Source: Marsupella aquatica
Taxonomy: Eukaryota; Plantae; Marchantiophyta
DNA length: 64,000 bases
Reading direction: 5' to 3'
NCBI GenBank assembly: GCA_973895155.1
Contig: OZ316891.1
Location: 7,247,808 to 7,311,807, forward strand
Within the stretch, counting starts at the first letter, position 1. The number at the start of each line of letters is the position of its first letter. Of the stretch, positions 1 through 48,139 are shown in pieces. The position numbers were made by a program, and so were the translations under genes. Below the pieces are notes generated by a model. That model searched no databases and was not told the origin of the DNA. It was given only the letters and a program-made list of their open reading frames with translations.

Positions 1-376
1 TGCTTTAACCTGGTGAACATTGCAACGTTGAATGAATTAATGGGCCATGTGATAATATGCAAAATGATTTATGCCTCACTCATTTGTCTCAGCCACTATC
101 ATAACCTATTTAGGATGTATAAATTTCAACCCTTATGACACTGCTTCATACCAATCCTCTTCGAAGAATGCCTGTTTTACATGTCACGACTATTGTATGT
201 GATTCAAATGCATGAAATGTTGTTGCAGATCTCCTTTGGTGAATCATAGCCACAATTAAAATTGAGGTGTTGGTGGATAAATTGTATTAGGGGATCAGTT
301 TTGTGTGTGGGCTCAACATACCAAAAGTATGTGTGCTCTGCATCCTTGTGTGGCCATTCCAATTCATTGCAGTAGC

Positions 377-520
377 AAATGCCTTTGTACCTTAAATGCT
401 AAATATATTTTACTTTCTGTGCAGTCTGCTAAATTGTAGAGTCTATCTAAATGCCTTTGTACCTTAAATGCTAAATATATTTTACTTTCTATGCAGTCTG
501 CTAAATTGTAGAGTCTATCT
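377..520. repeat. 72-bp direct tandem duplication (2 copies, 1 mismatch) containing a splice-acceptor-like site
   Basis: AAATGCCTTTGTACC...GAGTCTATCT at 377-448 and 449-520. Confidence 0.95.
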
Positions 521-531
521 CATGCGCAGGC

Positions 532-1212
532 ATGGCACGGCCTAAAATTCAAGCCAAAAAGCGTGTGACAGAGGTGAGAAACACAGGTGTACTTGGGGCA
601 GATGCTACTAACTTCTCTGCAAGTCAGATTTTCCAGAAGGCAGCTCATTGTTGTGCCATTTGTGACGATGGTGGGGGCCTGGTCATTTGTGAGGGCCTTT
701 GCATGAGGCATTTCCACCTCAACCCGGAGTCTGACCTTGCTGCAGAAAACAACTGTCCAGGGGTGGGCCTCCCGTCAACACACCAGGGAGACTGGATGTG
801 CACTGATTTTTTGGAGAAGCAGGCTAAGTGTGCACAGTGTGGGAAGTTGGGGTCCTATGAGGGCTCTGTTGATGCTGCAGCAAATGTTAGGAAATGTCCA
901 GACCGTTTTTGTGTGAGATTTTTCTGTTTTGAGTGTTTGCCTGCTCATGCCACAGCTTGCCCACTTCATAGGTGCAAGGCATGTGGTGAGCATGATGATG
1001 ACTACTGGACTGACATAGTCCATTGTGCTAGGTGTCCCACTATGTGACACTATCATTGCCTGAAAGATCATCAAGCAGAGGGTTATGCTTGTGACAGAGA
1101 AATCTATGATCACTCTGCACATGGTGTTGATCGATGGATATTTTATTGTCATCGCCATGCCATTGATCCTACCTCGCGCACTCCTGTGAGAGATCACATA
1201 TCTTGGTTGTGA
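532..1212 (+). pseudogene. Stand-alone EDM2-like composite PHD/zinc-finger protein (~226 aa) with one in-frame TGA at 1045-1047
   Basis: CAICDDGG..CEGLCMRHFH..C..., C-x2-C-GKLGS, CPLHRCKAC, CARCP. Reading through the TGA gives HYHCL...IFYCHRHAIDPTSRTPVRDHISWL*, matching my recollection of the EDM2 PHD region (CAICDNGG..CEGSCLRSFH; CPLHKC; LIYCQEHEID..TPVRDH). Basic N-terminus ARPKIQAKKR. Confidence 0.8.
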
Positions 1213-1804
1213 AGCTGAACATTGTACATGCACAGTGCACCTGATGTGGATGTACTATTTTTTGAGATTGCAGAGATTCCAATTTTGAAAAGGAGTTGGG
1301 TAGGCGAGTTTATATAGGCAGCACTTATCTTGTGCTCTGGCGTCAGTGGCTGGGTACATGCCTATACAAACTTATCCTTACAAGCCTTCTTGGAAGTATT
1401 TAGGCTGAGTGGTCATTTTCATAAACACTTTCATCAGACTGCTAAATTAAAACAGGACTTCTAAGTTGTAAGCGTATAAATTATCAGGCATGCAATTAAT
1501 CAAATTGCCCTATAAGTTTGTCATTGAATGTATCCTCCTTTACAACAAAATATGTATGTGCCATGACAAGTTGGTTGCACTTCATTTCACCACGGATATG
1601 GATTTTGTAGTATATATTCAAACAATATCCTGCATCCGTGCAGGTGCCTAGTACGTATTGTTCACATATCCCTTGTACCTATTAAAATCGGACTTGAGCA
1701 CCAGTGGGCCAGATCAACTCAAAAAGCAGGAATTTTGTTGTCCTTGTATTGTCAGGTGAACCCATTCTTCCAAAATTCACTGTCATCACGTAGGGTGTGT
1801 GTAC

Positions 1805-2677
1805 ATGGAGCCTGGTAAACTTAGAAAGTGTGACCACCCAGCAGTGTTTACAGGGGTCAGAGCGATTTTGGTCCATGGCCAGCATGGGTTGACCAAAGTG
1901 CATTGGCCAACTGTACAGAAACGATTCTCTGAGCTCCATGGCACTGTAGTTCAGGACATCACTCCAGAGACTACACATGTTGTTGCAGGGACATGGCTAT
2001 CAGTGATAAAGAAGTGGTCATGGTCCTACATGAATTCTGCAATTACTAAGCAAGGCCTAAAAGTAGTTGAGGCCTCTTGGATCACAGCTTCCATAGCACA
2101 TAAGATTGTACAAGATACTGAGCAATATGAGTTGTGGGAGGATGAAGAAGCTACTGCATCAGCTTGGGCTGAACAAGAAGTCTGGGAAGCAAAGGCACGG
2201 CTTGCTGATCTCCAATATGGACCTGTACTCAACAAAGGACAGAGCTCTACAAGGCTGAAGAGTATGTTGGCTGAGGAGACGAAGCAACCAACCCCCATTC
2301 TGAAAGGGCTGAGCATGGTATTTGTGGAGGCGGGAATTGGAGAGGTTAAGTGCAAAGTGTACAAGTCCACAGTGCTTGACCTAGGTGGGACAGTGGAGGA
2401 GAATATAACAGAGGACACCACTCATGTCATTACTAAGTCATATCCCAAAGCCTGCCGCAAGTTTGGGAAGGGAGACATTCGCTTTTATGTCATGTCCCAT
2501 AATGTGTTTGTGGTTTCATATGCTTGGCTTGTGGAATCAGTAGCAGCTGGGAAGCGTCAAAACCCAATGGACTATGATCTTTTTGAGGCCTGGCCACGGA
2601 AGGGTCAGGATCCTTACAGAGAGGACTATGAGACAACAAGTGAGGAATGGGTCATTAGCGATTCTGAATCAGAGTGA
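1805..2677 (+). CDS. Tandem BRCT-domain protein (two Pol lambda-like BRCT repeats, acidic tail); reading frame intact
   Basis: Two repeats with the BRCT pattern: (F/L)xG..., GTV..., TTHV(V/I), W-x3-S (ASWITASI; YAWLVESV). ATG at 1805 follows an AG acceptor at 1793. Confidence 0.85.
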   Translation: MEPGKLRKCDHPAVFTGVRAILVHGQHGLTKVHWPTVQKRFSELHGTVVQDITPETTHVVAGTWLSVIKKWSWSYMNSAITKQGLKVVEASWITASIAHKIVQDTEQYELWEDEEATASAWAEQEVWEAKARLADLQYGPVLNKGQSSTRLKSMLAEETKQPTPILKGLSMVFVEAGIGEVKCKVYKSTVLDLGGTVEENITEDTTHVITKSYPKACRKFGKGDIRFYVMSHNVFVVSYAWLVESVAAGKRQNPMDYDLFEAWPRKGQDPYREDYETTSEEWVISDSESE

Positions 2678-3110
2678 GGAGTAGTAACATCAGTTTGGAC
2701 ACAAGTTTTTTTGTATAAATCAGATCATTGAAATAAATGTGATCTTTGAACTAATGTACCTTGTTATGGTTGGTGGCAGTTGGGCTTATTTTACTGTTGG
2801 CGGATTGTTGTTTCCTGCTGCCTAGGGGTGTCACTATAAACGTACATGCAGAGGCGGTACATTTGAGGACAGCGGAGGAGGTGGTGACACCCTCCAACAT
2901 TTAGGAATTTTGTGTCATTCACTTGACAATAGGTACACTACTTGCAAACCTGTTTTTTTCTTTTGGGGTGGTTTAGGGTTTGTGAGAATTTAGTACACGT
3001 TATGTTAACTCTTTTGGCAGATACAGTCAGGGATATATGGAACACAAATACCACCATTAGGCATCCTTGTTCACTGCTGTCCATGACTGCAGAGCTCCCA
3101 GCCTGTTACA

Positions 3111-6100
3111 ATGCACCCTGGTCACCACCCTCCCCAGACCCAGCCCAGGGCACAGGCACTGCCTTTGCATCATCCCACAAGGATATCACGCCATGATAAT
3201 AAGCTTTGGCAGCGTGAAAGGTTACGAACCAGATTTTCAGGAGCCAGTAGGATGAGATGTCCTTGTGCAATCTGCCAAGGATCCCGTACCAGGGGTCTGA
3301 ATGAGGTTTGGCGGCATATCGCGGTTCATGGAAGAGATCCACAACATCGAGTTTGGAATGATCCTGCAGAGGAAGATTCTTCCGACGAGGAGTGGAGGTT
3401 AGAATTTGATGCTGCCAATGCTGCAAGACGGGCAAGTGAGGTTCTGCCTGGTGCATTTGAAAATGTTGTAGCTGGTCTCTATGGGTTGTCAGCTCTCCAA
3501 CGGGATGGTGCTCAGGCAGCACCACGTGACGAAGGAATTCATGTGGAAGAGATGGTGAGAGACATCTTCCAAGACTTGGATGCATTTCATGATGGGCTGG
3601 ACAACGAAGAGGATACGGCTGCAGATGCAAGTGTGCCCCCTGTCGAAGAGCCTCTTGATGAGTTTGAGATAGGGCAGGAAACCCCTGGGCATGATGGGAT
3701 GTTTGGCTCTCCCCTGCAAATACAGGAAGGCAGGAAGTCTTTGTACCCCGGTAGCAAATGTTCTAAACTGGGATTTGTCATCATGTTCTTGAACATTTGC
3801 GGCAACCACAATGTCCCCAACGTTTTGGTTTCTGAGTTGTTGGCATTCTTGCGAACAACTGTGCTACCAGATAGTAATATTTTGCCCAAGAACATGTACG
3901 AGGCAAAAAGATGCATATCTAATCTTGGATTGAACTATGATTCGATCCATGCCTGTCCTGATGGGCATGTTCTTTTCAGAAAGGAGTATAAAGAATCGTT
4001 GACATGCCCTAAGTGTGGGAAGCACAGGTATCGGAACTCAGGAAAGTCTATGGTTCCCGCCAAGGTACTTCATCATTTTCCACTCATTCCCAGACTTTAG
4101 CGGATGTTCAGAAGCCGTGCCATCTCGGAGATGATGACTTGGGCAACTGACAAGAAAAGTGATGATGGGCTACAACGATATGCTACAGATTCAAGGCAAT
4201 GGAAACTCATAGATGAGATGTATCCCGAATTTGCTGCTGAGCCGAGGAATGTCAGACTTGGGCTGTCATTGGATGGGGTAAACCCATTTGGAGACAAGAA
4301 CAACAAATTTTCGTGCTGGCCTGTAACTATTTTGAATTATAACCTTCCTCCTTGGATGACTACAAAGCAATTTTTTGTTCTGATGGTCCTACTGATACCA
4401 GGGCCAGACAGTGCTGTATCTGCCAACATAGATGTGTTTCTGGCTCCCCTAGTGGAGGAATTGAGAAAGCTTTGGGAGGAAGGAGTTCTCACATATGATG
4501 TCCTACAGAGGCTTGGGAGGTTAAACCCATTCATCCTTAGAGCCATTGTCATTCTGACTATAGCTGACTACCCAGCCCATGGGATGATATCAGGCCAAAC
4601 AACAAAAGGATATTGTGCTTGTACTATCTGTGGGCGCAATGTCACCAGTGAGTACTCCAGAGCCCTGCAGAAAGTGATATACATGGGCCATCATCGTTTT
4701 CTGAAGGCAGATCACCCTTACAGAGAAAGACAGGCACTGATTGCACACTTTGGCAATGAGATTGAGCAACGTGGACCCCCGGCACGAGTGACCAAAGAGG
4801 AGATCAGGCAGTGGGGAGCACTGAGGGATGACTATATCAAACGAGGGGGCAGGGAAGATGGAGTGAGTGATCCAATAAAGCGATATGGTGTAAAAAGACT
4901 GAGCATATTGGACTTGGAGCTCAAGTACTGGAGGGTAAGCCTCTTGGAGTTGATGCTAATTGGGATACATGTTTTGGTTCAGAGCATGTGCATTCATTTC
5001 GAAGAGAGAGACTAAACTTGAGGCATTTCCTGACGCTTTTGCATTGCAACGATGCAGGAGTTTGAGCCAAGCAAACATAACATTGATGTTATGCACATTG
5101 AAAAGAATATTTGTGAGAGTCTACTCAGATTCTTGTGTGGAGAGAAAGACACTGGTTCAGTGAGATTGGATCTTGAACAGAGGGGAATGAAACCCCATCT
5201 TTGGTTGAGGCCACATGCCCACAGAGCTGATGTGCTCTTGAAGTACCAAGCGCCCTATGTTCTGACAGACACAGAGTGGGAACTATTTGTGCAGAGGTTG
5301 AGTTCTTTGAAGGTTCCTTCAAACTATGGTAGTGCTTTCAAGAAGCATATCATGACTAGAAAGCTTGGTAGTATGAAAAGCCATGACTACCATATGTTGA
5401 TGCAACAGGTGTTGCCTTTATGCCTGAGGGGCCTGTTGCAGAAGCCTGTTCGTACTGTGATCATGCGACTCAGTGATGTGTTTCGTCGTATTTGTGTGAA
5501 GGTTTGGGATGAAACACATTTCCCACAACTGACAGAAGATGTCGCTCAGGTGCTGTGTGACCTGGAGATTTATTTTCCTCCCGCATTTTTTGATGTCATG
5601 ACCCACCTACTTGTCCATGTTGTGGAAGAGCTACACCAATTTGGGCTTGTGAGTGCTCGTTGGTTGTACCCTTTGGAACGGTACATGAAGCTACTCAAAG
5701 GTCACGTGAGAACATATTACAAACCTGAAGCAAGCATGGCTAAAGGTTACATCAAGGATGAGACTCTGGGATTTCTGACCGAATACATAGCACAATATGA
5801 GCATGTGAAGACCAGGGTGTGAAATTCTGATGAGGAGGAAGGGGTGATAGGTGAAGTACTGGAAGGGGCTGCAACCACAAAGAACCTGACCATATCTATG
5901 AGAGACTTGGCACATGACTTTGTATTGCACAACACTGTGGTGATGGAACCCTGGATACAGTGAGTGCATACATGTGCTATAATCCAGTTCATGAGCTTAA
6001 ATGTTGTGTTCGTGTGGTTTTCTCCTTCAGCCTGTTCATGTTTACCCAAGCTAATGCTGTGTGGTTGTTCGTTCAGGGAGTATGAGTCATTGAAGGCGGC

Positions 6101-6842
6101 CCATCCCACTGCAGGAACAACTTTTCCAGGTTTCATGGAGTGGATCAGAGTGGCAATTAGAGAGCATCATGAGACCCACCCAGACATGGATGCAGATGTT
6201 TACCTACTGTCTAATGCCCCTAGCCTGAAAGTGAAGACTTACAAACGGATGAGAGCATATGGGAATCACTTCCGAGTGAAGGATGGTCACAGTGCCTACA
6301 GGGTGACGAATGACTGCGGGCTCATCACTGTATTTGAGCAACAGAGCCACAATCACGACAGGGCCTGGATGGAGATGGGATATGTGGGAGAATTAGTTGA
6401 CATATGGGCTCTGGACTATGGGGCGGTGTCCAGTCCTATGATTCTTATGAAAGGTTCATGGGTGCGGCAGGATTGGCTTGGTAATAGGGCTACCATGAAG
6501 AGAGACAACGACGGTTTCTTGCTGGCCAATTTCAGAGGGAAATTGCCCGAATGGTCTGAGCCATTTGTGTTTCCTAGTCAGGTGGAGCAAGCTTTCTTCC
6601 TGGATGTGGAAGACTCCCCAGGTTGGCGTGTAGTGTGTCATAAACAGGCCAGGCAACGTCGGATGGAAGGATCAAACCTTGAGTTTCATTTACACTCTCA
6701 TAGTGCCTTTGATCGTCGGTGTTCAGACCAAGTGCCTGTAGTTCATGATAGCGGGGACTTCATTCCTGTGACAAGGGTAGATGCATTTGCTGAAGGAGGC
6801 GAATTCAGAGATGCAGATGCCAACAGTGTGCCTGTGCCATGA
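3111..6842 (+). pseudogene. CACTA TnpD/Tnp2-like transposase (transposase-associated Zn motif, Transposase_21, DUF4218, DUF4216); introns 4935-5057 and 5960-6076; premature stops at 4098-4100 and 5820-5822
   Basis: IHACPDGHVLF..CPKC, PRNVRLGLSLDGVNPF, YNLPPW, DYPA, HNIDVMHIEKN, KSHDYH, FPPAFFDVMTHL, WLYPLER, EPFVFPSQVEQ. GT-AG introns restore the frame. Confidence 0.95.
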
Positions 6843-6998
6843 GTAATGTGAATTGTTTGCATGGACATTAGTGAGGGGAAGGATGTGTAATAAAGTAATT
6901 CTGAAGCAACACAGATGTATGGATGGATGCCTGGTGATTGTGGTTGCATTGTGTTATACGGGGTGACCATAGATGACATGTTTTTGTGGTCCAGTAGG

Positions 6999-9900
6999 AT
7001 GGAACAGAGTGACACAGAGATGTGTGAGTATGAAAGGAAAGCTATGGAACAACGAGCATACGTGAAAGCCAAAATCGCAGAACTGGATCTGGAAAAGGAT
7101 GTGGCTGAATTGTAAGGGAACGATTCTCAACTACACCCCTCCGCTGAGTTTGTGTGACATGAATAGTTCAATGTGGCACTGAAATTGTGACTGTATTCTC
7201 ATATTGGAATGTCGCAGAGCCACAACATTTTCAAAGAAACAAAAGGAGTACGCAAGAAGGGTGACCAGCACTATCTCTGGGCCTGTGCGTCGGAGTGACA
7301 GGTTGAGCAAGAAGGTCGTACCTACAATGGCAGAATGTGGAGATGACATTAATGCTGCACAGGTGGGTGCAGACACTAGACAAGAAGATGCAGATGATGA
7401 GTATTTTCCAGAGGAAATGGATGAGGATGGGGGTTATGAAGATGAATACATTGCAGAGCAGCCCCAAAAGAAACATGTAAGTAGTTTTCCCAACAAGGTT
7501 TTGAGTTAAAAACTCTTGTTTAGAGGTTTCATATGTTCAGTACTACACATATGTACCTTGCTTAGTTCCTGACATTGTAGTTGGTGATGTGATGCAGCGT
7601 CCTGGCAGTTCTGTTTTGCCTTCGAAGCCTGTGCATGCACCATACCAGCAGGGGGGGCTGACCTCTGATCAAGGTTGGCACTCGGGGGGGGTCACTTCCA
7701 TGGAAGTGACACATCACGTGCGACGAAGTATAGGCCCATTTAAATGGGTGTGGCGGAAGACTTCCAAAGTTTGGTGGAAGAACACATAGGGCATGTTTTA
7801 TTGATTGGTCGACTTTAAAGAACACATAGGCCTATTTAATTGCAAAAAATACTTTCTATAAAGTTTTTAGGGGTTTTTTAATAAAAAATGACAAAATTTT
7901 AAGAAAGAAAGGGCTTTGCAAAAAAATATTTTTCACTTTAAAGTTAGGGGGGTCAAACCCTAAAACGTCGCACGCGATGTATGACCCTCCATATAGTGAC
8001 CCCCCCGAGGGTTGGCAAGGTGGTAGTAGTGGTAGATCCCAGGCTGGTGCCCAATACTATGGCAGGGGGCAAGCTCTAGGTTATGCCCGTGGTAGAGGCA
8101 GAGCAGGTCCAAACCCACAATCTCGTGGGTATGGACGCCCACCTCAACCATGGGGATGTGAGTATATATCTATATGCCAGTTCTTTGTGAAGGCATGGCA
8201 CTCCTGAATTTCAGACTGCATATCAATTTTTGACATTGTTTGGGATGTATTGGATTCAGACAACATGAAATTCTGTCCACCTGCCATTGCATGCAGATTT
8301 TGCCCAACCTGATTGGGCAAATGCTAGTAATGATCAGTTCCAATGTCCACAAGGACAGACATGGGTTGAACCAGGTTGGGAGGATGGTGGTGGGTCGTGG
8401 AATGAACAAGGTTGGGAAGGTGGTGAAGGTAATTGGCAGGGATATCAAAATTCAGTACCTACAAACGCTGGAAGAGGAGCAGGTAATGTCTGATCTTGTC
8501 AGCAATGGAAGAACTCATTATATGTGGAGTCCATTCACGTGGGGGGGACTCTGCACATGTATAATGATAGAAAATGTATGTGTGCAGGTTGGACAGTCGA
8601 ACCATCGACTCAAGTATTCACTAATGCCCCTATGCAGATGCAGCACGGAAGGGGGACAGGTATGTCGGTGAATGTTCAGTTGTTTTCCTATAGTTTGTAC
8701 TTAGTTTTCAGTACATATGTTTGCACACACATACCTAGAAAGTGACATCATCCGGCCCCTGTACTAGGCTGGACAGGTGGTCCAGGGTCGCAACAATTTC
8801 AGAGTGCAGTCCCTGCACAGGCATCTATAGGCAGAGCTACAGGTATGTATGTTTGAAGAATTTTTCTTGAAGTGAAGCATTGAATGTTGCCGTCATCCAT
8901 TCTGCTATATGTAGTTCTCAAGCATGAATGGCATTGTATTTTCCCAGGTGGCTTCAGAACCCCAGGTAGGGTGAATGAAGGGGTGGCCAATACAACGCCC
9001 AGTACTACCGAGAGCAGTGCACGAGGGGAGGTGACAAAGAAAGGGAATGTAAAGTTGAATGAGAGACAATGGGTGGATGCTGAGTGTCCTCGCAAGAACC
9101 GATGGCATGCTGATTTGAAAGCTGAAGTATTGCGTTGGTTAGATGTGAGTGTTATTAATTTTAAAAAATAGCATCCAAAAGATTGGAAGACTGTATGTGA
9201 AAATGTTGCTGCCAAATGGAATTATGTGGGCAGTGATGATGGCGTGGACATAGGTTGCCTAGAGAGTACAGCAGGTAAAATTATCAAGCAAGAGAGGTGG
9301 AGAATGCATAAGGCTTGGAAGGAAGGTGGGGAGAAGCCAGATATGCCTCCACCAGCCAGTTGTGATGATAAAGTGTGGGCAAGGTTAGTAGCTTATTTTG
9401 TAACAGATGCTTCAAAAAAGAAGAGTTCACAGATGACCGAGGCCAGGTTGAGTGTTCAAAACCCTAATCTGACAGGAAGGACCGGCACTGCACCGACAGC
9501 TAAACGTTTGGTAAGAATGAATGGCCTAGCTATGTAATTTATGCTACACTATGTACTATTTTTTAGTGTAAACCCATACATGTAAACTTTGTTTTTTAGT
9601 GTACGTTCCCTGAATATTGATCGATAACTTGTGTTTGCCATGCATGTGCAGAAAGCCCAATTGGGGCAAAGCCCTTCAAAAGAAGAGTTGAGGGCTGAAA
9701 TTGTGAACACCCGGGCTCAAGGGGGTGCATCTGAATCCTCCAAGCAGTAAGTTATATGAGTTCTGATTGGTAATTGAATGACCTGCGTTGAATTTCAAGT
9801 GTACATTGTATATAACATTGATTGTGCATATATTGCCCAACATTTCATATGGAGTGATTGAACCTATACCCCTGTGTCATGTAGGGAGGTGGATCTTCAC

Positions 9901-11041
9901 TTACAGAGATAAGTGGTCGTTTGAAGGCTGTCGAAACATGTCTTCCAGAGATCAATGAACGTTTGAATTCATTGACTGACTTGTTCCATGTGAACTTCAA
10001 GACATTAATGGAAGCTGTTGTGTCGGTGAGAGATAAAATTGATTCCAATTCTGCAGGAGTTCCACCATCACCACTTGAGGTGGCAAAGTCGATGCACTCT
10101 TCTGGCATGCCAACGACATGTAGGCTTGAAGGTAAGGCCTTTACAATTGTGTGGGATATGATTATTAAATGTATAGTTTGAATTGACATTGTTTGTTGAA
10201 TGTGTTATTTTCAGTAACATATATTGTGGTTGTTGTGTCCATAGAGAATAAGATAGGTGCTACAGAGAAGAAGTATGAGAACCTGGCAAATACTCGCTGT
10301 AATTTAGAGGCAACAAAGTTGCAGTCTGTACAAGCAACTTGTTTGACAGAGGGTAGTCAACCATGTTTGGATGAGGATGACATTGGCAAGGGAGTGGATG
10401 ATATCAATGTTGGGGCAAATGAGGATATCAGCAAGCATGACAATGATACCATTGAGCCAGATTCATGCTATGTAGATCTTGACTCCATTGCAGAGATAAA
10501 TGATTTGCAGAATGTATCATTCTCAATGACAGGTGTGCCTCTTGTTGAGATAAATCCAACCAAAGAGTTAGTTGGTATGACACTCCCAGGTGATGAACCT
10601 GCTACTGTGACAGTCCTAATAGAGGAACCTACTGAGCCTAGCTTCACTACTGTGAAGAGAGGAAGCATGCGCACACGAAGCAAGTCTGCTGGTGGGAGCA
10701 GAGCCACGTCAAAGGTTTCATACAAACCTCCAAGAACAGTGCTGGCAGAAAGATCTAAGGTGGAAGTGGGGAAAGCACCTAATGCTGAGGGACAAAGTGG
10801 CTTGTTAGCTGTTGATGAGAGTGGAACACGAGTAGGATTTGCCAGAGTGCAGGTTGGTTCCACAACGTTCCATGGCAAGAGGATTCCCCCAGGTTATTCA
10901 GTAGTGTTAGTCACATTACTAGTGAAACCTAAAGCTGTCCTTCCCATTCCAAACACAAATGATGATCCTCCTCAAAAGACACTTGGAGATGCTGCAGGTT
11001 CTTTGGTATTATGGCCAAGCAAGTTCATAGAGGATCCATAA
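6999..11041 (+). pseudogene. CACTA ORF2 (TnpA-like), about 10 exons; Transposase_24-like central region and TNP1-like C-terminal domain; TAG at 9169-9171 and MITE insertion in exon 3
   Basis: Approximate GT-AG exons: 6999-7111, 7218-7476, 7598-8157 (minus MITE), 8297-8482, 8588-8659, 8768-8842, 8948-9510, 9652-9746, 9885-10131, 10245-11041. Motifs WARLVAYF..KKKSSQMTEAR..NLTGRTG and FHGKRIPPGYSVV..LPIP..TLGDAAGSLVLWP. Confidence 0.8.
7681..8009. mobile_element. 329-bp MITE with ~44-bp imperfect TIRs and an 8-bp TSD (GGTTGGCA)
   Basis: Left CTCGGGGGGGGTCACT..ACATCACGTGCGACG; right CGTCGCACGCGATGT..AGTGACCCCCCCGAG. GGTTGGCA at 7673-7680 and 8010-8017. Removing it restores the ORF2 frame (..SDQGWQGGSSG..). 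Confidence 0.92.
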
Positions 11042-11539
11042 CAATGTCATGCCATTATTTGTTTGTAGTGTGAGTCATGTTATGTAGATTTTAGATGTCA
11101 AGAAGCAGTACAAGAATCATGTCCTCTTGGAGATTCATAGTATCATGCATGTGCTTTCAGTTATCTCATCCTACAGTCATCAATTATGAGTTCCTGTTTT
11201 GTCTAAATTACATTGATCACATTGTAAACTATTCCATTGGAATTCAAATGATCTTCATTTTTTAGCAAGATTGTGATTGTGTTTAATTCTTATGAATGTT
11301 TTATGTAGGATCTGCTTATATGATGCTTTGTTTCATGTGGATGTCATTCATGCTATGTTCATTTCTTGTATTCAATGTGTTATATTTCTAAAGTTAGAAC
11401 ATCAGGTTTCTATGTATTGTAATGTCGAGTGCTCTCTCTCCTTATGAACTGTCCCTCTGTGTTCATTAGTCATGGTTATAACTTGCATGTGAACCTTATT
11501 AGTTATAAACATGAGTATATAGAGTCCCAAATGGTTCTG

Positions 11540-11896
11540 TTGTGTGACGCGGGCCAGGGTCTCCATTGGTCTCTCCTGTGACACTAAATAGTCACACGCT
11601 AGTCGTTGTTGAATGCGGGTAAGTCATGTATGTGACTTACGATGTGACTCGCTGAAGTCATATTGCAGTCACGTCGAAACAAGGCTAGACTCCACAATAA
11701 AGTCACAGATCAGTCACAAATGGGTATCAAGCAAGTTGCAAAGCCCAGTATCAATAGTGACTTCCATTTTTTGGTCTCAACTTTTGCAACTCCAAGGGTC
11801 ACAGCGTGGGTCAAGTCACGTTGAGTCACAATGAAGTCACATGAGCCAAAATGAGTCATATATTGCGGTCTCAGTTCACCTCGGATTCTTCTAGTG
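11540..11896. repeat. CACTA right subterminal repeat array (GTCAC/GTGAC, both orientations) plus TIR
   Basis: About a dozen or more (A)GTCAC/GTGAC motifs in ~330 bp, ending at TAGTG (11892-11896). Confidence 0.85.
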
Positions 11897-12460
11897 GTTG
11901 TATCCCAAATCCTTGGTAATAACACCTTTTTGCAGTTGATTTGCGCTACCTTGATCACCAACTTAGCGTACCTTTGCTTGTACGATGCCTTCTTGGGGCA
12001 AGAATACCAATAAGTCTCCAATACCTTGGCTCCTGCCTCCTCAAACAGGGTCCAAAATCCAAGAGCAGTAAGGTTCATACTAACCTTCTCTGTCCGTTGG
12101 TAGAGCTTGTCTCCCATGCCACATTCGCTCCTCCTCAGGGCAGATCCGCTATCTTCCACGAAGAGCTCCTGATCATCACCTTATATTGCACCTGACTAGA
12201 TTCCGCAACAATGCACATGATCCTTTGGTCTTCTGCAAAGAAATAATGTCGATCCTGAGTGGCAACTGAGCGTAAGCACAAACAAAAGGTGAACAGGTGA
12301 CAATGATGGCAAAGCATGAGGTAGAAATGAGCTGACAGCCATCGAAGGGTTCTTATGGTGCTCTCGGGTGTGTTCGGATGTGAGATCGTTGAGTACTTGC
12401 AGCCGCCATCTCCCAATTGAATGCGACTATATACCTTGGTCCAAGCATGATTTGCCATAA
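11897..12460 (-). pseudogene. Degenerate coding-like fragment of unknown identity, cut by the CACTA insertion
   Basis: Two overlapping minus-strand frames (12135-12458, 11710-12159) and an intron-like acceptor (..TTTTGTTTGTGCTTACGCTCAG). No family recognised. Confidence 0.3.
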
Positions 12461-12779
12461 CAAACTTTTACTCCACCGCCATCATAGTACGTACAGCGAA
12501 TGGTCATAATAGTGCGCATCTTAATCAGCACCCATTATGTGACTAACCTATTCCTAGCCTAATCATAACTGCTAAATTGTTACATGTATTGTTCCGAACT
12601 ACATGTATATAGTCCTAATGACCGTATATGTCCTAATCTACTAATTGGTCCAGGGTAAGTGACACATTGCCCGTGTCACACCTTCACACCAAAGGTGGAG
12701 CTCAAGCCCATTCCTACTGAAAGTGAACCTGTGCAGTGTATAATGAGAACTATGGGTAAAGTTGTAGCCCTTTATAGGT

Positions 12780-13420
12780 GCAGTTGTAGTTTAAGGGAAG
12801 CCATAAGATCTCCATCCAAAGCTTGAAACTCAAATAGGATGCAAAAAGTTCTTTGTGTGAAAGTAGAGACTCTAAAGCCATATCCCCTAGTTAAAATTAC
12901 ATTCCATAGATCTTTTACAAACCTAAAAGACCTATATGAGCAAAAGGTTTCTGATCTGAACTTGTAGCTCCCCAAAGTTGTTGCTTGGCATGATCTAAGT
13001 GACATAAAGCACTATACACGTGATATATAGGGAGCCATGGAGTAGATGGGATCTCTATCCAAATCTTTGAACTTGGAATACAATTTGGACTCTTTGTAAG
13101 AAAGTCAAACTAGCTTGCGTATTATATATCCATGTCATTTAAATACAAATGCATGTTTGCATAGATCCCATGCAGGCTTAAGCATCCTATTTGAGTCCTG
13201 ATAATTTTTTAAGCAAAAGGTTTTGGAAGGAGAATCCTTTCTGAGCTTAAAGCTCAAGATAGAAGAGTAAATATGTATAGCCTTTTCACTATAATTAATC
13301 CATCTCATCATAGTTCAAATGCACATTTTTGTAGATCCCATGCAACCTCAGGAAACTTGTCTGAGCAGAAAAGGTTTGAGGATGGAGATCCAATTCAGGC
13401 TTATAGCTCCAATTTGTGTT
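12780..13420. repeat. Degenerate repeated unit (AGATC(T/C)C..CCAAA..TTGAA; TAGATC..GAGCA(A/G)AA(A)GGTTT), 2-3 copies
   Basis: Recurring motifs near 12806/13050 and 12906/13161/13331. Confidence 0.45.
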
Positions 13421-13779
13421 TGCTCATATTTGCCTTTGTAATGTCATTTGGCTACAAATCCATGGAACTATAAGACTAACTTGTTAATCAAACCCTTCCA
13501 GTATAATATGTGGTAATTGTGTTGCTTTATCTGGGTTCACAGTATGACTTATGAATTCATAGTTTCCAGAGAAACTTTATGTATTTTCCAATTGAAAATG
13601 TTGACAGACCCCTGGTTGAGCACATAGTTACTTCCATCACTTTCAAGCTGGTTCTTGAGTATAGTACAAAGATGAGCATGCTTGTCAAGATGCAATTTTT
13701 TCTACAAATTATATAAAAGGTGTTCTTTATATGTAAGCACTCAACCCTTCTTGACGGAGGAACTAGCCATGAAATTGCC

Positions 13780-28830: not shown

Positions 28831-29462
28831 CGTCCGTGGACCAGGCTGTTCTGGATTTCCGGTGCGATTTTGGGTTTTGGTCGGAGCTGAGGAGGGCCTG
28901 GTAATGTCATTGCAGCGTTGGACTAAACTTTGGGGTAAGGAATTTATCCTCCAGAGAAAGAATGGATACAGCGTGCGCCACATAGGAAGTTGATTTGAAG
29001 TCGGCTCAGATTTCAATCCAGAATGTTTTTGCGGCAAGCATTATGATCGTTGATCTCTGGAGCTAATGAACATTGGTGGAGAGTTCTTGCTTCTACTTTT
29101 GCAGCTCAATACTTCGAAAGATTCGGCGGCATTGCCCGAACATTGGGAATTTGGAACTCAGCTTGACGAGCTTGTGCGTCTTGGACCAGAGGGGAGCGAA
29201 ATTCAGCTCAGCATGTGAGATCAACATCAAGACTGCGTTGCAAAGTTGGGAAGTAGTCTAGATGTCACGATACTTCCCCTTGGATCTACGGATTACAGTC
29301 CGCGAAGTGTGGCCGGCATCGCATGGGATAAACTAGCCAGGAAGCTAGATTCTTGTAGATGGTCCCGTCGATTATCGATGAAGTTAGCCTCATCCAGTCT
29401 TGGCGTTGCGCGGCGCTTTGGCCGTGGCAGTTTGTCAAAATAATGAATTTGTGTGCTCTTCA

Positions 29463-31949
29463 ATGGATTCTTTGCGTTCCAGCTTGGGACGTCACTTCCA
29501 GCATTTTGTGAGGCGTGCCAACTTTCGAAAGTACCACTACGAAGCAGCTGGCCTTGAGTTAGGGGCGTGGGACAAGCTGATTTGCGAAGTGATCAGAGCC
29601 GGGCAGCTCGGGAGCCTTTCCAATTCGGAGGACAGTTCTCTGCTAAAGGATGAATTTGCAAAAGCTTTAGGGTTGTCAGGTTCAGCTGGAGAGTTTGAGG
29701 ACTTAGAGGTCGCCCCAACTGGGCCTCTAGACAGGCTTGCAAGAAGCAGGGCCAGGAAGCGGGGCTCACTTATATCCCAGTATTCGAAAGGCCGGTTAGG
29801 TTACCTTCCTAATCTTGACAGTTCGTACTTCAGTGGGGCTGGGTACCAGTGGCGATCGTCTTCAACTCTACAAGAGGCCAGCTCAGGGTCCAGGACAGGC
29901 AGTGAGGTAGAACTTGCGGTTGTGGATGTGAAGAAGTATTCTTCTGAATTGAGTGTTAGGCAATCTAGTGATTTGAGAAAACATGGACAAGAGAGTAGTT
30001 TGCATACACGCGGAGCTTTGTCGAAGAAGAAACCACCGAAAGCAATGGGCGCTGCTACAGCGGTTTGGGATATACACGCAGTGCTTAGCTCAGACTGTTG
30101 GGGACCCGCTACTGAAGATGCTCTCGGCAAATTGGGTTTGCAGTTACGGAACCACCATGTAAGTCAGGTGCTTCGGGGCCTGAAAGATTCAAAGTTGGCT
30201 TGGGAATTTTTCAAGTGGTGCAAGAAGCAAGAAGGGTACAATCACGATGCCCTGAACTACAACATGATGATTGGAATGCTAGCCGCAGATCGAGTTTCGA
30301 AGCCTGTTTTGCCTTTACTTGAGGTGATGTGTGTGGAGGGCTTTGAGGTTTATCCTAAAACTCTCGTCACGATAATTCTTAATTTTGATAAATGCGATAA
30401 GATACAGGACGTCCTGCACATCTTTAGCCAAACAGGGAGATACAAGATGCAAGTAAATGTGGGTGTCTACACCTGTCTGATTGATGTGCTTGCAAGGAGG
30501 GAAGAATACCAGCAGGTCATGAAATTCTACTCGGTTATGCAGAAGTCTAACTGGACATTAGATAATACTGCCTATAATGTGCTGATGCGGGCATTTGGCC
30601 GGGCTAAGAATGCGGGCAAGGTCTGTAGCCTTTTCCAAGAAATGAAGGAGAAAGGTTGCAGTCCTGACATGTACACATTTGGATTTCTAGTTGGTGCCCT
30701 CGCAAAGGCCGGGAGAATGGAAGAGGCTTTGCTTCACTTCAGGGAAATGGAAAAATGTGGTTTGACACCAGACGTGCCTACTTATAACATTGTTATTGAC
30801 TGCCTTGGGAAAACCGGTAAACTTGATGAAGCCTATGTGCTGCATAGAGAGATGGTGGACAGGGGACTTAAACCAGATGTGGTAACTTACAATTCTCTGT
30901 TTGATTCCCTCGGAAAGTCTGGCCAAGTAAACGATGTGCACAAGCTTTACAAGGAAATGTTGAGCAGCGGCATTTTTCCCAACGAATTTACATGTTCCAT
31001 TCTTGTTGAGGCTTTAGGTAGAGCTGGCAGATTGCAAACAGCATGTGATCTATTCCTGGATATGATGAAGACACCTGGGTTCAAAATGGACGTGATTGTG
31101 TACAACACCATGCTAAATAGGCTGAGCAAAGCAGGCCGTTTGGACCAATTACGCAGACTGTTTGGAGAAATGAAAGAAGTGGGGCAGCAACCTGATGTTT
31201 ATACGTACAACATCGTGATCGGTGCTCTCTGTGAGGGACAGGAGTTCCAGATAGGACATCAAGTGTTCATGGAAATGAAATCCGCCGGATGTCCTCCTGA
31301 TGTTGTCACCTACAACAATCTCATACATAGCTGGGGCAGGGCGGGTAAAGTTGCTCGAGCAAAGAAGCTGTTCCAACAGATGATAAGAGATGGACTTGTT
31401 CCCGATCAAATCTCTCACAACATAATGATTAATGTTCTAGGCAAGGCGCAAAAGAGTGACCAAGCATTGAAAGTTTTGAAGGATATGAAAGACAGGGGTA
31501 TGAGGCCCGATGTCGTCACTTATAACAGGCTTATCGATACTTTTGGGAAAGCAGGTGATTGCAAAGCTGCCCATTTGCTCTACACTGAAATGTTAGAGAA
31601 TGGCATTGCTCCTGATCACATCACCTTCACTGTACTGATCAACGGTCTTGCCAGAAATTATAAAGTTGATGCAGCTCGGAAAGTATATCGCGAAATGAGA
31701 GATAGGGGTCTTCGTGCTGATGTGGTCACATTCAACAGTCTTATCTGTGGATATATTAGAGAAGGTAGAATTGCGGAAGCTAATGAAATACTTATTAGGA
31801 TGAAAGCTAGTAAGGTTGAACCCTCTGCCACCACTTATGCGATACTTATTGATGGCAATGCTAGACACAACAATGATGATTTGGTATTCAAACTACGCGA
31901 GGAGAGAATAAAGGCTGGATTTTCAGCTGAATGGAGTGAGGTCATGTAA
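29463..31949 (+). CDS. P-class pentatricopeptide repeat protein, single exon, ~16 PPR motifs, no E/DYW or SMR domain
   Basis: 35-aa repeats of the type PDVVTYNxLIxxxGKAG. First in-frame ATG at 29463 (the ORF track starts at TTG 29400). Confidence 0.95.
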   Translation: MDSLRSSLGRHFQHFVRRANFRKYHYEAAGLELGAWDKLICEVIRAGQLGSLSNSEDSSLLKDEFAKALGLSGSAGEFEDLEVAPTGPLDRLARSRARKRGSLISQYSKGRLGYLPNLDSSYFSGAGYQWRSSSTLQEASSGSRTGSEVELAVVDVKKYSSELSVRQSSDLRKHGQESSLHTRGALSKKKPPKAMGAATAVWDIHAVLSSDCWGPATEDALGKLGLQLRNHHVSQVLRGLKDSKLAWEFFKWCKKQEGYNHDALNYNMMIGMLAADRVSKPVLPLLEVMCVEGFEVYPKTLVTIILNFDKCDKIQDVLHIFSQTGRYKMQVNVGVYTCLIDVLARREEYQQVMKFYSVMQKSNWTLDNTAYNVLMRAFGRAKNAGKVCSLFQEMKEKGCSPDMYTFGFLVGALAKAGRMEEALLHFREMEKCGLTPDVPTYNIVIDCLGKTGKLDEAYVLHREMVDRGLKPDVVTYNSLFDSLGKSGQVNDVHKLYKEMLSSGIFPNEFTCSILVEALGRAGRLQTACDLFLDMMKTPGFKMDVIVYNTMLNRLSKAGRLDQLRRLFGEMKEVGQQPDVYTYNIVIGALCEGQEFQIGHQVFMEMKSAGCPPDVVTYNNLIHSWGRAGKVARAKKLFQQMIRDGLVPDQISHNIMINVLGKAQKSDQALKVLKDMKDRGMRPDVVTYNRLIDTFGKAGDCKAAHLLYTEMLENGIAPDHITFTVLINGLARNYKVDAARKVYREMRDRGLRADVVTFNSLICGYIREGRIAEANEILIRMKASKVEPSATTYAILIDGNARHNNDDLVFKLREERIKAGFSAEWSEVM

Positions 31950-34123: not shown

Positions 34124-34447
34124 TGTTGAGCATAGACGACATTCGCAACGGCAAGCCCATGAACCATCCAACGCACAAGAGTCAACACAGAGAGATACGT
34201 GGTTCACCTCGACATGAGGCTACGTCCACGGGAACACACAAGAGCTTTATTGCACTCTAGGCCGACCGGCCATACCAAACATCCACAGCACAAGCTCTCC
34301 CTACATCTCAACTAGCTCCATCATAATGAGCCTAAGTTCCACCAGGGTCTGCACAATAACACTACCGCTAACATTAGCTAAGTCCTAACCCGAGTTAGAC
34401 TAACTGTGGTTAGCTCATGAGTCACAAGACTAGAGCAATATCTAACA
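34124..34447 (-). mobile_element. Copia solo LTR, same family as the 40638-47307 element, TSD CTATC
   Basis: TGTTGAGC...CTAACA, highly similar to the full element's LTRs apart from a ~20-bp deletion. CTATC at 34119-34123 and 34448-34452. Confidence 0.95.
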
Positions 34448-40637: not shown

Positions 40638-43600
40638 TGTTGAGCATAGACGACATTCGCAACAGCAAGCCCATGAACCATCCAACGCACAATAGACGAC
40701 ACAGAGAGATACGTGGTTCACCTCCACATGAGACTACGTCCATGGGAACACACAAGAGCTTTACTGCACTCTAGGCCGACTGGCCATACCAAGCATCCAT
40801 AGCACAAGCTCTCCCTATCTCTCAACTAGCTCCGTAACAATGAGCCTAAGTTCCACCAGGGTCTGGCATCAGCCCTGGCTATATGCACAACAGCACTACC
40901 GCTAACCTTAGCTAGGTCCTAACCCGAGTTAGCCTAACTGTGGTTAGCACAAGAGTCACAAGACTAGAGCAATATCTAACAAACTCCCCCTTGACTCTTG
41001 TCTTGGGGACTGGACTAAATGCTACCATATGGAATCCTCAGCGGGAAGTTCTAGACAATCACCAAACCAGGTCTCCCCCTAAAAACCACAAGGGTTAACT
41101 AAGGGTTAACTAGAACTAAGCCGTAGCCTAACAGGAATGAGTAATCCATATACAAATAGTCACACATTGCTAAATAACTCTACTTGCACTACAATTGCAA
41201 AACCTGCAAAGTAGCACGGTGTCTTGAGAAACTCTCCAAAGGAATCACTTTGGTAAAGGCATCAGCGGGATTGAGCTTTCCATCAATCTTGACTAGCTCA
41301 AAAGTTTTATCAGACACTGCTTGCCTGATAAAATGGTATCTGATATCAATGTGCTTCACCCTGCTATCCATCACCTGGTTAGCAGCCAAGTGAAGAGCAC
41401 TCTGACTATCACAGTTTAGAGTCATTTTTCCATGCTCTAAACCCATCTCCGCGATCAACTTATCCAACCAAATTGCTTTCTTTGCTGCTTCTGCTGCTGC
41501 AACATACTCTGCTTCTGTAGTAGACTGAGATATACACTTCTGCAAGGTAGATTTCCAACTGATACATCCTCCTCCAAGAGTGTATACAAACCCAGTTGTA
41601 GACCTCCTTGTATCCAAACAGCCTCCATAGTCAGAATCTACATAGCCAACTAACGTTCTATCTGATCTGTTATCAAATAGTAATCCATAGTCCTCTGTTC
41701 CCTTCAGATACCTGAGAGTCCACTTCACAGCTTCCCAATGTACCTTCCCTGGATTTGACATGAATCTGCTAACCTTGCCCATCGTTAGGGCCAAGTCAAG
41801 CCTAGTACAAGTCATCAAATACATCAGACTGCCTACTGCCTTCTCATAAGGAATCTTAGCCATCAGACCTTTTTCCACAGCATCCGTAGGAGAGAAAGCC
41901 GATGATAACTTGAAATGTGAAGCTAAAGGAATACTCACTGGCTTACAGTTTTCCATGTTGAATCGTGCAAGTACTTTCCTCGCATACTGGCCTTGACTCA
42001 ACCACAACTGTCCAGTCTCAGAGTTCCTAAAAATCTCCATCCCTAAGATTCTCTTGGCCTTACCAAGATAATTCATCCTGAATTCAACACTCAATTTCGC
42101 CTTGAGACTGTCAACCTCAGATTGATCTTTAGCCACAATCAGCATGTCATTCACATAGATCACCAGAATGATGAAACCAAATACATCATTCTTGACTGAT
42201 TTCGTATACACACAAGGATCATACACCATCCTTGTAAAACCTTGAGCAAGCATGAAATCATCAAACCGCTTGTTCCACTGTCTGGGAGACTGCTTCAATC
42301 CATACAAGGACTTGAGCAATCTGCAAACTAAGTTCTCTTGGCCCTTCTTCATAAAGCCTAGTGGTTGTCTCATGAAGATCATCTCTTCCAAGTTGCCATA
42401 GAGAAAAGCAGTAACAACATCCATCTGATCCATCACCAGACCAAAAAACACAATAAGCTGACACAAGATCCGAATTGTGGAATACTTAGCCACCGGTGAA
42501 AAGACCTCATTGTAATCCACTCCTTTCTCCTGAGTGAATCCCTTGGCAACAAGCCTTGCCTTGTAGATCTTGTCTCCATCCTCTGAAGGACTATCCTTAA
42601 ACTTGTAAATCCACTTGCTGTCCACCACTTGTTGACCTCTTGGAAGCTCCACCAGCTCCCATGTCTTGTTGTCACTCAAAGATTGCAACTCCCTCTGCAT
42701 TGCTGCATTCCACTCATGCTTCTGCTCTGAAGCACAAGCCTCACTATACGAAGAAGGCTCTCCTTCTTCCAAGATCAAAGCCATATCATCTTTATCAAGT
42801 GCAATGTCAATATCATCTAGCTTAGATGAGTCTGCCCATTGACCATACCTGGTAGGAGCTCTAGTAGAACGACTAGAAGTTCTTCTAGTAGATGACTCAG
42901 GCTGATCTGTTGTTGCTGCTGGTTGAATTTGAGGTATCCTAGCAACAATCTGCTCCTCTTGTTCCATCATAGGAACCAGCTCCAAGCCCGGAGCTTCTCC
43001 ATCTCTCCTGTCATGAACTGCATCATGACTAATCTCCCCCTCAACCCGGTCCAGGATGGGAGATTTCCCCTTGTCAGTATGGGAGTCCTGAGAACTCTCC
43101 CCCTCCTTTGATGATCTGGATTCATTAAAGGACACATCTCTACTGACAATTAGTTTACAGGTTACTGAATCCCATAACCTATAACCCTTAACACCTTTCT
43201 GATAGCCAAGGAAAATGCACTTCTTCGACTTGGACTCTAGCTTAGATCGAAGCTGGGAAGGTGTAAGCACATAAGCATCACATCCAAAAATCCTTAGATG
43301 TGAGTAATCTATTGGACGCCCGTACCTCATTTCAAATGGCGTCTTGAATCCAATAGAACTGGATGGAAAAAAATTTACCAAATAAGCTGCAGTGTTGACA
43401 GCTTTAGCCCAAAACTCATGTGGTAAGCATGATTGACTCAACATACTCCTCGAGCGGTCCAATAGTGTTCGGTTGAGTCTCTCAGAAACACCATTCTGCT
43501 GAGTAGTATAGTTTGTTGTGAGATGGCGAGTAATCCCCTGCTCCTTACAATACATTCCAAATTCACCGGAACTGTATTCATCGCCGTTATCCGATCGAAG

Positions 43601-46600: not shown

Positions 46601-47307
46601 TTCGCAAACATCAGCAAACTAGATACCAAAACGACCAGCGCACCGCACTATCACATGCGACGCCCCGCGCACCGCACACCGCACAGCTCACACCGTTGAA
46701 GAAACGATCTCTGGTTTCTCCCCCGAAATACCGTCGAACACGAATAAACCCTGAACGACGCAAACTTCAATTCCTCCGCACCACGGATACCGATCAGCGA
46801 GCTCTAACCACCGTTAGAATGCCCTCTCACTAACCTATCCGCTCAGCCACACACAATCAAGTTTCATGCGATGAAACTCTGAATGTACCATCGACAATGA
46901 ACGCTGGAAAAACCTGTCACGAAAAAACCTCGTCACCTCCCAGGCATGCTCTGATACCACTTGTTGAGCATAGACGACATTCGCAACGGCAAGCCCATGA
47001 ACCATCCAACGCACAATAGTCGACACAGAGAGATACGTGGTTCACCTCCACATGAGGCTACGTCCACGGGAACACACACAAGAGCTTTACTGCACTCTAG
47101 GCCGATCGGCCATACCAAGCATCCACAACACAAGCTCTCCCTATCTCTCAACTAGCTCCGTAACAATGAGCCTAAGTTCCACCAGGGTCTGGCATCAGCC
47201 CTGGCTATATGCACAACAGCACTACCGCTAACCTTAGCTAGGTCCTAACCTGAGTTAGCCTAACTGTGGTTAGCACAAGAGTCACAAGACTAGAGCAATA
47301 TCTAACA
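40638..47307 (-). mobile_element. Full-length Ty1/Copia LTR retrotransposon (Tnt1/Tork-like), mutated
   Basis: 5' LTR 46962-47307 and 3' LTR 40638-40981 (9 substitutions and one 2-bp indel by eye). PBS TGGTATCAGAGC (tRNA-iMet) at 46959-46948. PPT AGGGGGAG at ~40991-40984. Flanks AAAAT/AAAAC (4/5 match). Confidence 0.97.
41189..45332 (-). pseudogene. Copia gag-pol (gag, zinc knuckle, protease, integrase, RT, RNase H) with a frameshift near 44.5-44.6 kb and stops at 44408 and 43907
   Basis: FEVEKYDG, CWNCGKPGHMKRNC, WILDSACTFH, LWHFHLGH, HSDVWGP, RSDNGDEY, YKARLVAKGF, SLYGLKQSPR, YVNDML (D->N in the RT motif), KHIDIRYHF. Confidence 0.95.
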
Positions 47308-48139
47308 AAAACAAGATAAGAATATTTATGCCCTAATGAAATGAAAAATTAGTTAATGTGTCCTGCAGGTCTGAGACAGCAACACACTCTATGACGGGGC
47401 TATAGTAGGGCCATTCGAACAGAGCTCTAATAAGCATTGCATTACATTACTTCTCTGAGTCCTTGTGTAATTCTTGTGGTAACTCAATATCTGACCCAGA
47501 GTAGAGTTACCAACCACTGCTAATTGATGGGGTTGTGACACTTGGATCTAACCTAACCAATAAAGCCCAATAGTTACTCCCGGGGCCTACTCTTTAGAGT
47601 GAAGTGTCTAGACTGTGACTCTAAGTGAGAGTGCAGACCAAAAACACAGATGGTGCAAAGATGAACAGGAAATAACATGGAACCCCTTTATCCAAGGTTT
47701 TTTTTTCTCCTCATCTCTATTTAAATACAAGGAACTGGGTACATATGAGGCTAGTTGTTTGTAGTTGTAAACTGATACCAACAACTGATAATTGATGGGT
47801 CGTGAGACTTGACCCAATCTTACTTATAAAGTGCAAACATAAGCTAAACTTGGGGTCTAGATTTCTAGAGTGCCGTTGTAGAGAGTAACTCCAGATAAAG
47901 ACAAAACAAATACAAACAAAAGTGATTGTATACAAAAATACATGGATGGAGACAAAGATGAAAGGGATCAACATAGATTCATTTGCAAGACTTTTTTTTG
48001 TTGGTTAATCTAGATCTATTGATATTCAAAGAATCTGCATTTCAGGCTCATTGCTTCTGATTGTAAAGCCCCTTCATGATGACAGGGACCCAAAATGCCC
48101 AAAATCTTATTTAAAAAGCACCTACTATAAATTAGAGTT

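Follow-up and report, generated by a model that had tools for sequence, protein, structure and literature searches.

CACTA transposons of the En/Spm layout carry the genes TnpD and TnpA. Accessory genes are also known in EnSpm-type elements and in other DNA transposons, among them Plavaka PAG1-3, the VANDAL anti-silencing protein, HarbingerS SET and TET/JBP, according to the available part of the source, in which BRCT does not occur (bioRxiv 10.1101/2025.02.11.637652). Host-derived sequence carried between CACTA ends has been described as Pack-CACTA, and the accessible text presents these elements as non-autonomous, recent fragments (PMC6379663).

The locus studied here lies in a window of 64,000 nucleotides from Marsupella aquatica, which is the whole stretch of DNA that was analysed. 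Its first part holds an element that agrees with CACTA/EnSpm in having a right end starting with CACTA, subterminal repeats, a TnpD with Transposase_21, DUF4218 and DUF4216, and a TnpA-like gene with Transposase_24. Unlike that layout, it adds an NSD-type PHD gene and a gene for a two-BRCT protein upstream of TnpD (Table 1). With the accessory genes of Plavaka, VANDAL and HarbingerS it shares a non-transposase gene stably carried inside a DDE element; however, the genes covered by the available text on those elements are chromatin-modifying, DNA-modifying or DNA-binding, whereas the cargo in the window is a non-catalytic domain of repair type. Pack-CACTA, as far as its accessible description goes, offers a possible capture route for a BRCT domain, but the element in the window has both TnpD and TnpA and its cargo belongs to a long-diverged protein family. 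No CACTA or EnSpm element bearing BRCT was found in full-text literature searches, whose coverage leaves out subscription journals and Repbase.

Table 1. Coordinates of the CACTA element features and of the parts of the two-BRCT gene.
Feature	Position	Strand	Remarks
PHD-finger gene	532..1212	+	Cys/His-rich, NSD type; PF23011 and PF22908, both below cut-off; stop at 1045-1047 in this copy
Two-BRCT gene	1805..2677	+	290 aa, single open frame from ATG 1805 to TGA 2677, no catalytic domain
BRCT repeat 1	1841..2140	+	about aa 13-112; Trp-rich alpha2
Linker	2141..2284	+	~48 aa; predicted helix aa 114-138, then low-confidence aa 139-159
BRCT repeat 2	2285..2590	+	about aa 161-262
Acidic Ser/Thr-rich tail	2591..2674	+	predicted disordered
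TnpD transposase, multi-exon	3087..6842	+	Transpos_assoc, Transposase_21, DUF4218, DUF4216; two stops in this copy
TnpA-like multi-exon gene	7183..11041	+	Transposase_24 match 9172-9534, below cut-off; exon limits approximate
MITE-like insert	7681..8009		~15-bp terminal inverted repeats, 8-bp target duplication
Subterminal GTCAC/GTGAC cluster	11540..11870		13 in bin 11500-11999; all other 500-nt bins of the window have <=5
Candidate right CACTA terminus	11883..11896	-	reads CACTAGAAGAATCC inward; contig-depth fall in same bin

The CACTA element and its gene array

The genes of the element are collinear on the + strand in the order PHD gene, BRCT gene, TnpD and TnpA-like gene, and the Transposase_21 (Tnp2) match in TnpD reaches an E value of 4.5e-69 (Pfam). 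The structure of the copies was read from contigs of public sequencing runs, the depth of which is not a strict copy number. Ten of the 12 listed runs carry part of positions 500-3000, and four (X1, X2, X4 and X5) were compared over 1-13500. The BRCT region had served to pick the runs; the agreement in depth with TnpD and TnpA played no part in that choice. In X1, the contigs listed over the spacer, the BRCT gene and TnpD had depths of 1,554-1,799 with 0-4 differences, and the flank contigs from 11987 and 12642, both identical to the window, had depths of 24.2 and 24.3, giving about 70 times the flank depth over the BRCT gene. The fall in depth after bin 11701-12150 was also observed in X2, X4 and X5, that is, in 4/4 runs under three organism codes, and the right terminus and its subterminal repeats coincide with this step. 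In X5 the whole gene array was found at similar depth and the flank was nearly absent.

The BRCT gene is part of the CACTA element, and its depth is similar to those of TnpD and TnpA and drops beyond the right end, in agreement with the original prediction that it is borne by the element and is not an outside host gene. A host gene adjoining the element would fit with a left terminus that lies outside the window, so that a target duplication and flanking by two element ends are not visible, and with the finding that none of the contigs listed in X1, X2, X4 and X5 spans the whole element. However, the depth shared with TnpD and TnpA, the excess over the flank in X1 and the array of X5 make this explanation barely credible. 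Apparently, tens of young element copies carrying the BRCT gene exist under the three organism codes.

No partner CACTA end was detected at a fitting place within the window, and as the left end precedes base 1 the element is not visible in full. A CACTA at 2832 was considered as the left end and rejected, the depth being without a step there. The stops of this copy, at 1045-47 in the PHD gene and at 4098-4100 and 5820-22 in TnpD, appear to be private to it, because most contigs of the public runs read sense codons at these places. For both reasons the claim that the BRCT gene is the only uninterrupted reading frame of the element could not be confirmed in that form. In addition, at three stops per ~4,174 coding bases an ORF of 870 nt would stay open with P~0.54 and, as a consequence, the intactness of the BRCT frame is no sign of special retention.

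The PHD gene, which is covered at the contig depth of the element or higher, can for this reason be considered a second accessory gene. We take it to resemble the PHD region of EDM2, a plant factor for transcription through heterochromatic transposons, and it is a candidate anti-silencing reader. A role of EDM2 at intragenic transposons is described in the accessible part of the corresponding report, which does not bear on the resemblance of the PHD gene (PMC10241880).

Several smaller features accompany the array. A 72-nt tandem duplication, 99% identical, occupies 377-520, just upstream of the PHD gene. Sites resembling splice acceptors were noticed at 1643, 1755, ~3020 and ~529, ahead of the PHD, BRCT and TnpD frames, and would be compatible with a single leader farther upstream that is spliced alternatively to them. 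Positions 2826-2892, in the interval from the BRCT gene to TnpD, contain a 9-bp inverted repeat that includes the subterminal GTCAC motif and whose interior varies among copies; its folding as a hairpin does not exceed that of shuffled sequences (z -1.1). The MITE-like insert, presumably hAT-like, lies inside the TnpA-like gene and is skipped by the high-depth contigs of X1.

Elsewhere in the window, a Copia-like LTR retrotransposon with LTR segments 98% identical and an open pol frame of 905 aa was found on the - strand at ~40638-47309, and a related solo-LTR-like copy at 34124-34447. The + strand carries an intronless PPR gene with 12 PPR_2 stretches (29388-31949), in keeping with a land-plant host, an Arg/Ser-rich host exon (49043-50101) and an element with ORF1-like, endonuclease and reverse-transcriptase frames (57977-63857), which from its motifs we take to be a LINE.

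The two-BRCT protein and its relatives

In 200 shuffles of positions 1-11896 no stop-free frame of 290 codons arose, the longest having 212. Pfam identified two BRCT stretches in the ORF (PF00533, E 6.8e-13), and an AlphaFold2 model from a 16-row alignment contained two confident BRCT folds (mean pLDDT 82.7), an earlier model from 3 sequences having been unusable (pLDDT 33). The elements of the BRCT fold (beta1-alpha1-beta2-beta3-alpha2-beta4-alpha3, with the Gly motif and the alpha3 Trp) were recognised by Pfam, in the model and in its match to PARP4 (Z 15), and W92 and W241, which correspond to the alpha3 Trp of the superfamily, are conserved in the two-BRCT proteins. The mutual placement of the domains is undefined in this model (pTM 0.46), and the rmsd of 14-19 A between the modelled pair and tandem-BRCT structures is only a hint, since the alignment of 16 sequences is shallow. 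Neither the ORF nor the full-length relatives scanned with Pfam contained 8-kDa, fingers, palm or thumb polymerase domains. The gene was thus confirmed as an intact tandem BRCT gene, the motifs formerly cited for its repeat 2 are present in the translation, and the absence of a polymerase domain downstream was corroborated, the ORF closing with the acidic tail and TnpD being the next gene.

Both repeats share 24% identity over 99 aa (pairwise E 4e-11), and the profile of each repeat scores most domains of the other at 40-73 bits. As judged from these sequences, the repeats look like the product of an internal duplication and not of the capture of a ready-made pair, because each is closer to the other than to any outsider.

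A word-indexed search yielded 2 full-length relatives among 1,271 candidates, with 59-60% and 54% identity. The exhaustive phmmer search gave 23 matches, 16 of which were assigned to the family by shared motifs, the other 7 being other BRCT proteins. There are 11 full-length two-domain members of 264-321 aa, counting the protein of the window and the cluster members, and those scanned by Pfam showed BRCT families only. The relatives thus form a diverged protein family with a common two-BRCT layout, in which even the more distant members (21-30% identity) have both domains in an open frame, together with the residues typical of the family. Among longer proteins (549-2000 aa), the family profile found only one match in 6,114 candidates, and this was TOPBP1-like. 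The homolog searches skipped lengths of 509-548 aa, a gap into which Arabidopsis Pol lambda falls (198+329 aa, as given in the accessible part of PMC4444747), and retrieved no land-plant Pol lambda. In metagenomes, 172 stretches were picked up with A1 as query and not one was confirmed, and the scan with P0033 led to one locus (L001) of 1,404 nt that ends 464 nt past the stop, with no Pfam match in the two downstream frames scanned. The ESM Atlas returned generic BRCT clusters only (best 0.89 and 0.92).

One member, P0032, has the Trp-rich motif of repeat 1 in both of its repeats, which suggests, from its sequence, a second duplication or a conversion within the family. The last 30 aa of the window protein include 10 D/E and 6 S/T, and its acidic tail shares with those of P0001, P0002, P0007, P0008 and P0033 a cluster of the Y/W-x-T/S-T/S-x-E type, which we assume to resemble CK2 sites bound by FHA domains.

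Variants among close copies were taken from 4 further runs; 40 of 97 variant rows are listed, 28 of them inside the ORF. Seven of these 28 are synonymous, 22% being expected without selection (p 0.43), the listed variants include no indel that shifts the frame of the ORF, and repeat 2, which makes up 35% of the ORF, has 2 of the 28 in this partial list (binomial p 0.0007). These data bear on the possibility that the gene is a captured host fragment, a passenger as in Pack-CACTA without present function for the element. An ORF left intact by chance and the lack of a synonymous excess agree with it. No RNA run was among those listed as carrying the region, which counts neither for nor against a function. 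However, the relatives at 59-60%, 54% and 21-30% identity retain the two-domain frame and the family residues, repeat 2 is nearly free of the variants listed and the gene stands at full element depth, so that a mere passenger is very unlikely.

Affinities and conserved surfaces of the BRCT repeats

The repeats were compared with a panel of 41 cut domains, 29 of the family and 12 outsiders, in which P0003-5, P0012, P0015, P0016, P0026, P0029, P0031 and P0034-36 were left out as near-duplicates. Of the seven phmmer matches outside the family, four are Pol lambda-like, one of which clusters with a named Pol lambda, P0026 grouping with P0037, which has polymerase domains. P0023 matches the named Pol lambda at 60 bits, and for P0019 and the streptophyte-algal P0021 it is the best outsider, at about 31 bits. 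Against the PDB, the sole match of P0021 was a weak one (E 0.2), to the BRCT of human Pol lambda, and because its gene model is without a polymerase domain we only infer that P0021 is a Pol lambda. P0021 and P0036 are neighbouring, near-identical algal gene models with a Pol lambda-like BRCT, a Ser/Pro-rich tail and no polymerase domain; they represent either genes split in the models or one more BRCT that stands alone. No longer relatives of P0021 were found among 252 candidates.

With the profile of repeat 1, the four Pol lambda-like domains lead the 12 outsiders (52.7, 32.8, 32.4 and 30.1 bits), and the BRCA1-type domains reach 25.1 and 23.7 bits. The outsiders had originally been picked up through repeat 2, yet the profile of repeat 1 ranks those like Pol lambda first. 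With the profile of repeat 2, three Pol lambda-like domains come first (64.0, 54.0 and 52.4 bits), followed by a BRCA1-type domain at 49.7, the BRCA1-type domains scoring 46-50 bits. P0021 was top-ranked in 60/60 subsamples for each repeat, and in 52/60 when the close relatives of the window protein were removed; the named Pol lambda outscored the two BRCA1-type domains in 55, 51 and 47 of 60 subsamples. Repeat 2 also appears to parallel the N-terminal BRCT of plant Pol lambda, a resemblance that does not count as a test.

Searches against structures gave another order. In PDB profile searches human Pol lambda (30.1 and 28.6 bits) came after Rtt107, Rad4/TOPBP1, Rev1 (36.1 bits), BRCA1 and PARP4, and it was absent among the 34 matches of repeat 2 alone. 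P0027 had one weak PDB match, Dpb11, and the viral fold library returned generic ligase BRCTs only. The top Foldseek match was a 255-aa chain of 9CQ3 (E 4e-12, rmsd 17-19 A, 15-18% identity), presumably the BRCT pair of Ligase IV (residues 656-910). The tandem BRCT of DNA ligase IV, with its XRCC4-binding linker, is like the window protein in having two BRCTs and a long, partly helical linker, but differs from it by that same rmsd and low identity. In the fold comparison the PARP4 BRCT was first (Z 14.8-15.1; rmsd 1.5 and 93 aligned at the higher Z) and the XRCC1 BRCT had a Z of 13.7, both with only 11-14% identity; Pol lambda was not among the 50 entries shown, which does not exclude it. The trees leave the base open (one of them was built without four long rows), and AU tests of four groupings rejected none (p 0.39-0.43; family with Pol lambda 0.43, family with BRCA1-type 0.39).

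Taken together, a Pol lambda origin of the repeats is rather probable on the sequence comparisons. The original prediction of a duplicated Pol lambda BRCT stood in part: the duplication was found and the Pol lambda-like domains are the best of the 12 outsiders, but the trees do not resolve the origin and in the PDB other proteins rank above human Pol lambda. Fold and profile searches were similarly divided, with Pol lambda-like domains leading the panel of 12 and PARP4, XRCC1 and Rtt107 leading in the PDB.

Single BRCTs such as those of PARP4, Rev1 and XRCC1 bind nucleic acid or ADP-ribose, and the domains of the window protein could do so at DNA ends or gaps, protecting or holding the transposon ends. 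The best fold matches, PARP4 and XRCC1, the score of Rev1 with the family profile and the conserved, exposed Trp, Arg and Lys on alpha2 point in this direction; however, the identity to PARP4 and XRCC1 is low, a likeness of fold shows no function and the tail is strongly acidic. We consider such binding quite unlikely.

A phosphoserine pocket consists of S/T-G after beta1 and T/S-x-K at alpha2, according to the accessible part of PMC10386641. Both motifs together were present in 0/29 family domains and in 4/12 outsider domains, so by motif the protein is not a phosphopeptide-binding tandem BRCT, in line with the original prediction. A phosphopeptide reader of the BRCA1/TOPBP1/Rtt107 type, sensing damage signals such as gamma-H2AX, would account for Rtt107, Rad4 and BRCA1 being the top PDB sequence matches and for the BRCA1-type scores with the repeat-2 profile, but the missing motifs, the long linker of ~48 aa and, as a hint from a shallow alignment, the low pTM and large rmsd to tandems render it highly improbable.

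The available text on human Pol lambda places its Ku contact on helix alpha1, with R57 and L60 as the docking residues (PMC12056208), and this numbering was mapped onto the family via PDB-search alignments. At the equivalents of R57/L60/F61 the window protein has K/V/Y in repeat 2, K and V being conservative replacements, and H/T/V in repeat 1. The R57 and L60 equivalents are both kept in 4/28 scorable family domains and in neither repeat of P0002, the relative with 54% identity, whose two repeats lack the basic residue of the Ku site; the pair also occurs in 3/4 Pol lambda-like domains and in 2 unrelated domains of P0020. Helix alpha1 is the least conserved one, with a mean top-residue frequency of 0.34-0.35 vs 0.46-0.48 for alpha2. 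In alpha2 of repeat 1, W64 is kept in 16/16 and W73 in 15/16 repeat-1 domains and V67 is also conserved; in that of repeat 2, Y213, C217, G221 and R226 are conserved. The linker residue T117 is kept in 11/11 full-length members and E261 is a further conservation peak. As the R57/L60 pair is rare in the family and conservation lies on alpha2, a human-type Ku contact is not a conserved trait of the family, although such a contact by repeat 2 of this copy is possible from its residues. The conserved face of alpha2 may serve either to contact a partner or for packing within the protein.

Compared with the BRCT of Pol lambda (human 2JW5/9G9L; Arabidopsis), the window protein is similarly of the single type without a phospho-pocket and keeps K/V/Y at the Ku-site positions in repeat 2, but it is duplicated, has neither the Ser/Pro linker nor the polymerase, and its Ku-site residues are not conserved in the family. 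An accessory adaptor with no part in end joining, which within a transpososome or anti-silencing module would scaffold a chromatin factor of the host or the element's own PHD, TnpA or TnpD proteins, is favoured by the strand-collinear array with the PHD gene, TnpD and TnpA, by a conserved surface on alpha2 instead of the Ku helix, and by the known DNA-transposon accessory genes, mostly chromatin- or DNA-modifying in the available part of the survey (bioRxiv 10.1101/2025.02.11.637652). Against it, the nearest outsiders are DNA-repair BRCTs of the Pol lambda type and repeat 2 of this copy has K/V/Y at the Ku-site positions. We regard this scaffold as unlikely.

Possible role in host break repair

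Our preferred reading, tentative and somewhat short of probable, is that of a transposon accessory adaptor, a duplicated plant-lineage Pol lambda BRCT that would act on host break repair. Its more specific form, in which a eukaryotic cut-and-paste lineage would keep an anciently captured, duplicated Pol lambda BRCT as a mimic without polymerase, to occupy the end-joining machinery where the element itself excises or inserts, beside an EDM2-like chromatin reader, is doubtful.

According to the preferred reading, the element would have captured the N-terminal BRCT of Pol lambda, followed by duplication and long retention. The two-BRCT protein would then bind one of the end-joining partners of plant Pol lambda (Ku or XRCC4-Ligase IV), and the contact would probably involve the conserved face of alpha2 more than a helix alpha1 of the human type. 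Being without a polymerase, it could take the place of the host's Pol lambda at breaks left by excision, and this would favour sister-chromatid-templated repair restoring the donor copy. As an alternative step, it might tether repair factors to insertion gaps.

The link with repair partners is plausible because Lig4 and XRCC4 are reported binding partners of the Arabidopsis Pol lambda BRCT, and this polymerase is reported to act at transposon excision sites, both in the accessible introduction and text of PMC4444747, which cites others; the available part of the same study indicates that Arabidopsis Pol lambda aids transgene integration. Moreover, catalytically dead human Pol lambda is dominant-negative and, according to the accessible text, blocks gap filling only while it binds Ku (PMC12056208). 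A BRCT pair without a polymerase could be a natural competitor, and the protein of the window may have a role in NHEJ.

The family described here is an unnamed family of two-BRCT proteins, and the face that it conserves is neither the phosphopeptide pocket nor the helix by which human Pol lambda docks on Ku. Transposon accessory genes, as far as described in the available sources, act on chromatin or DNA marks and not on repair. Nevertheless, cut-and-paste elements gain copies only through host repair of the donor break, and templated repair of such breaks raises their copy number. This CACTA family, apparently high-copy and young, allows a direct test of whether an element encodes the steering of repair-pathway choice and, if the proposed reading is true, its two-BRCT protein would be a transposon-encoded modulator of host DNA repair.
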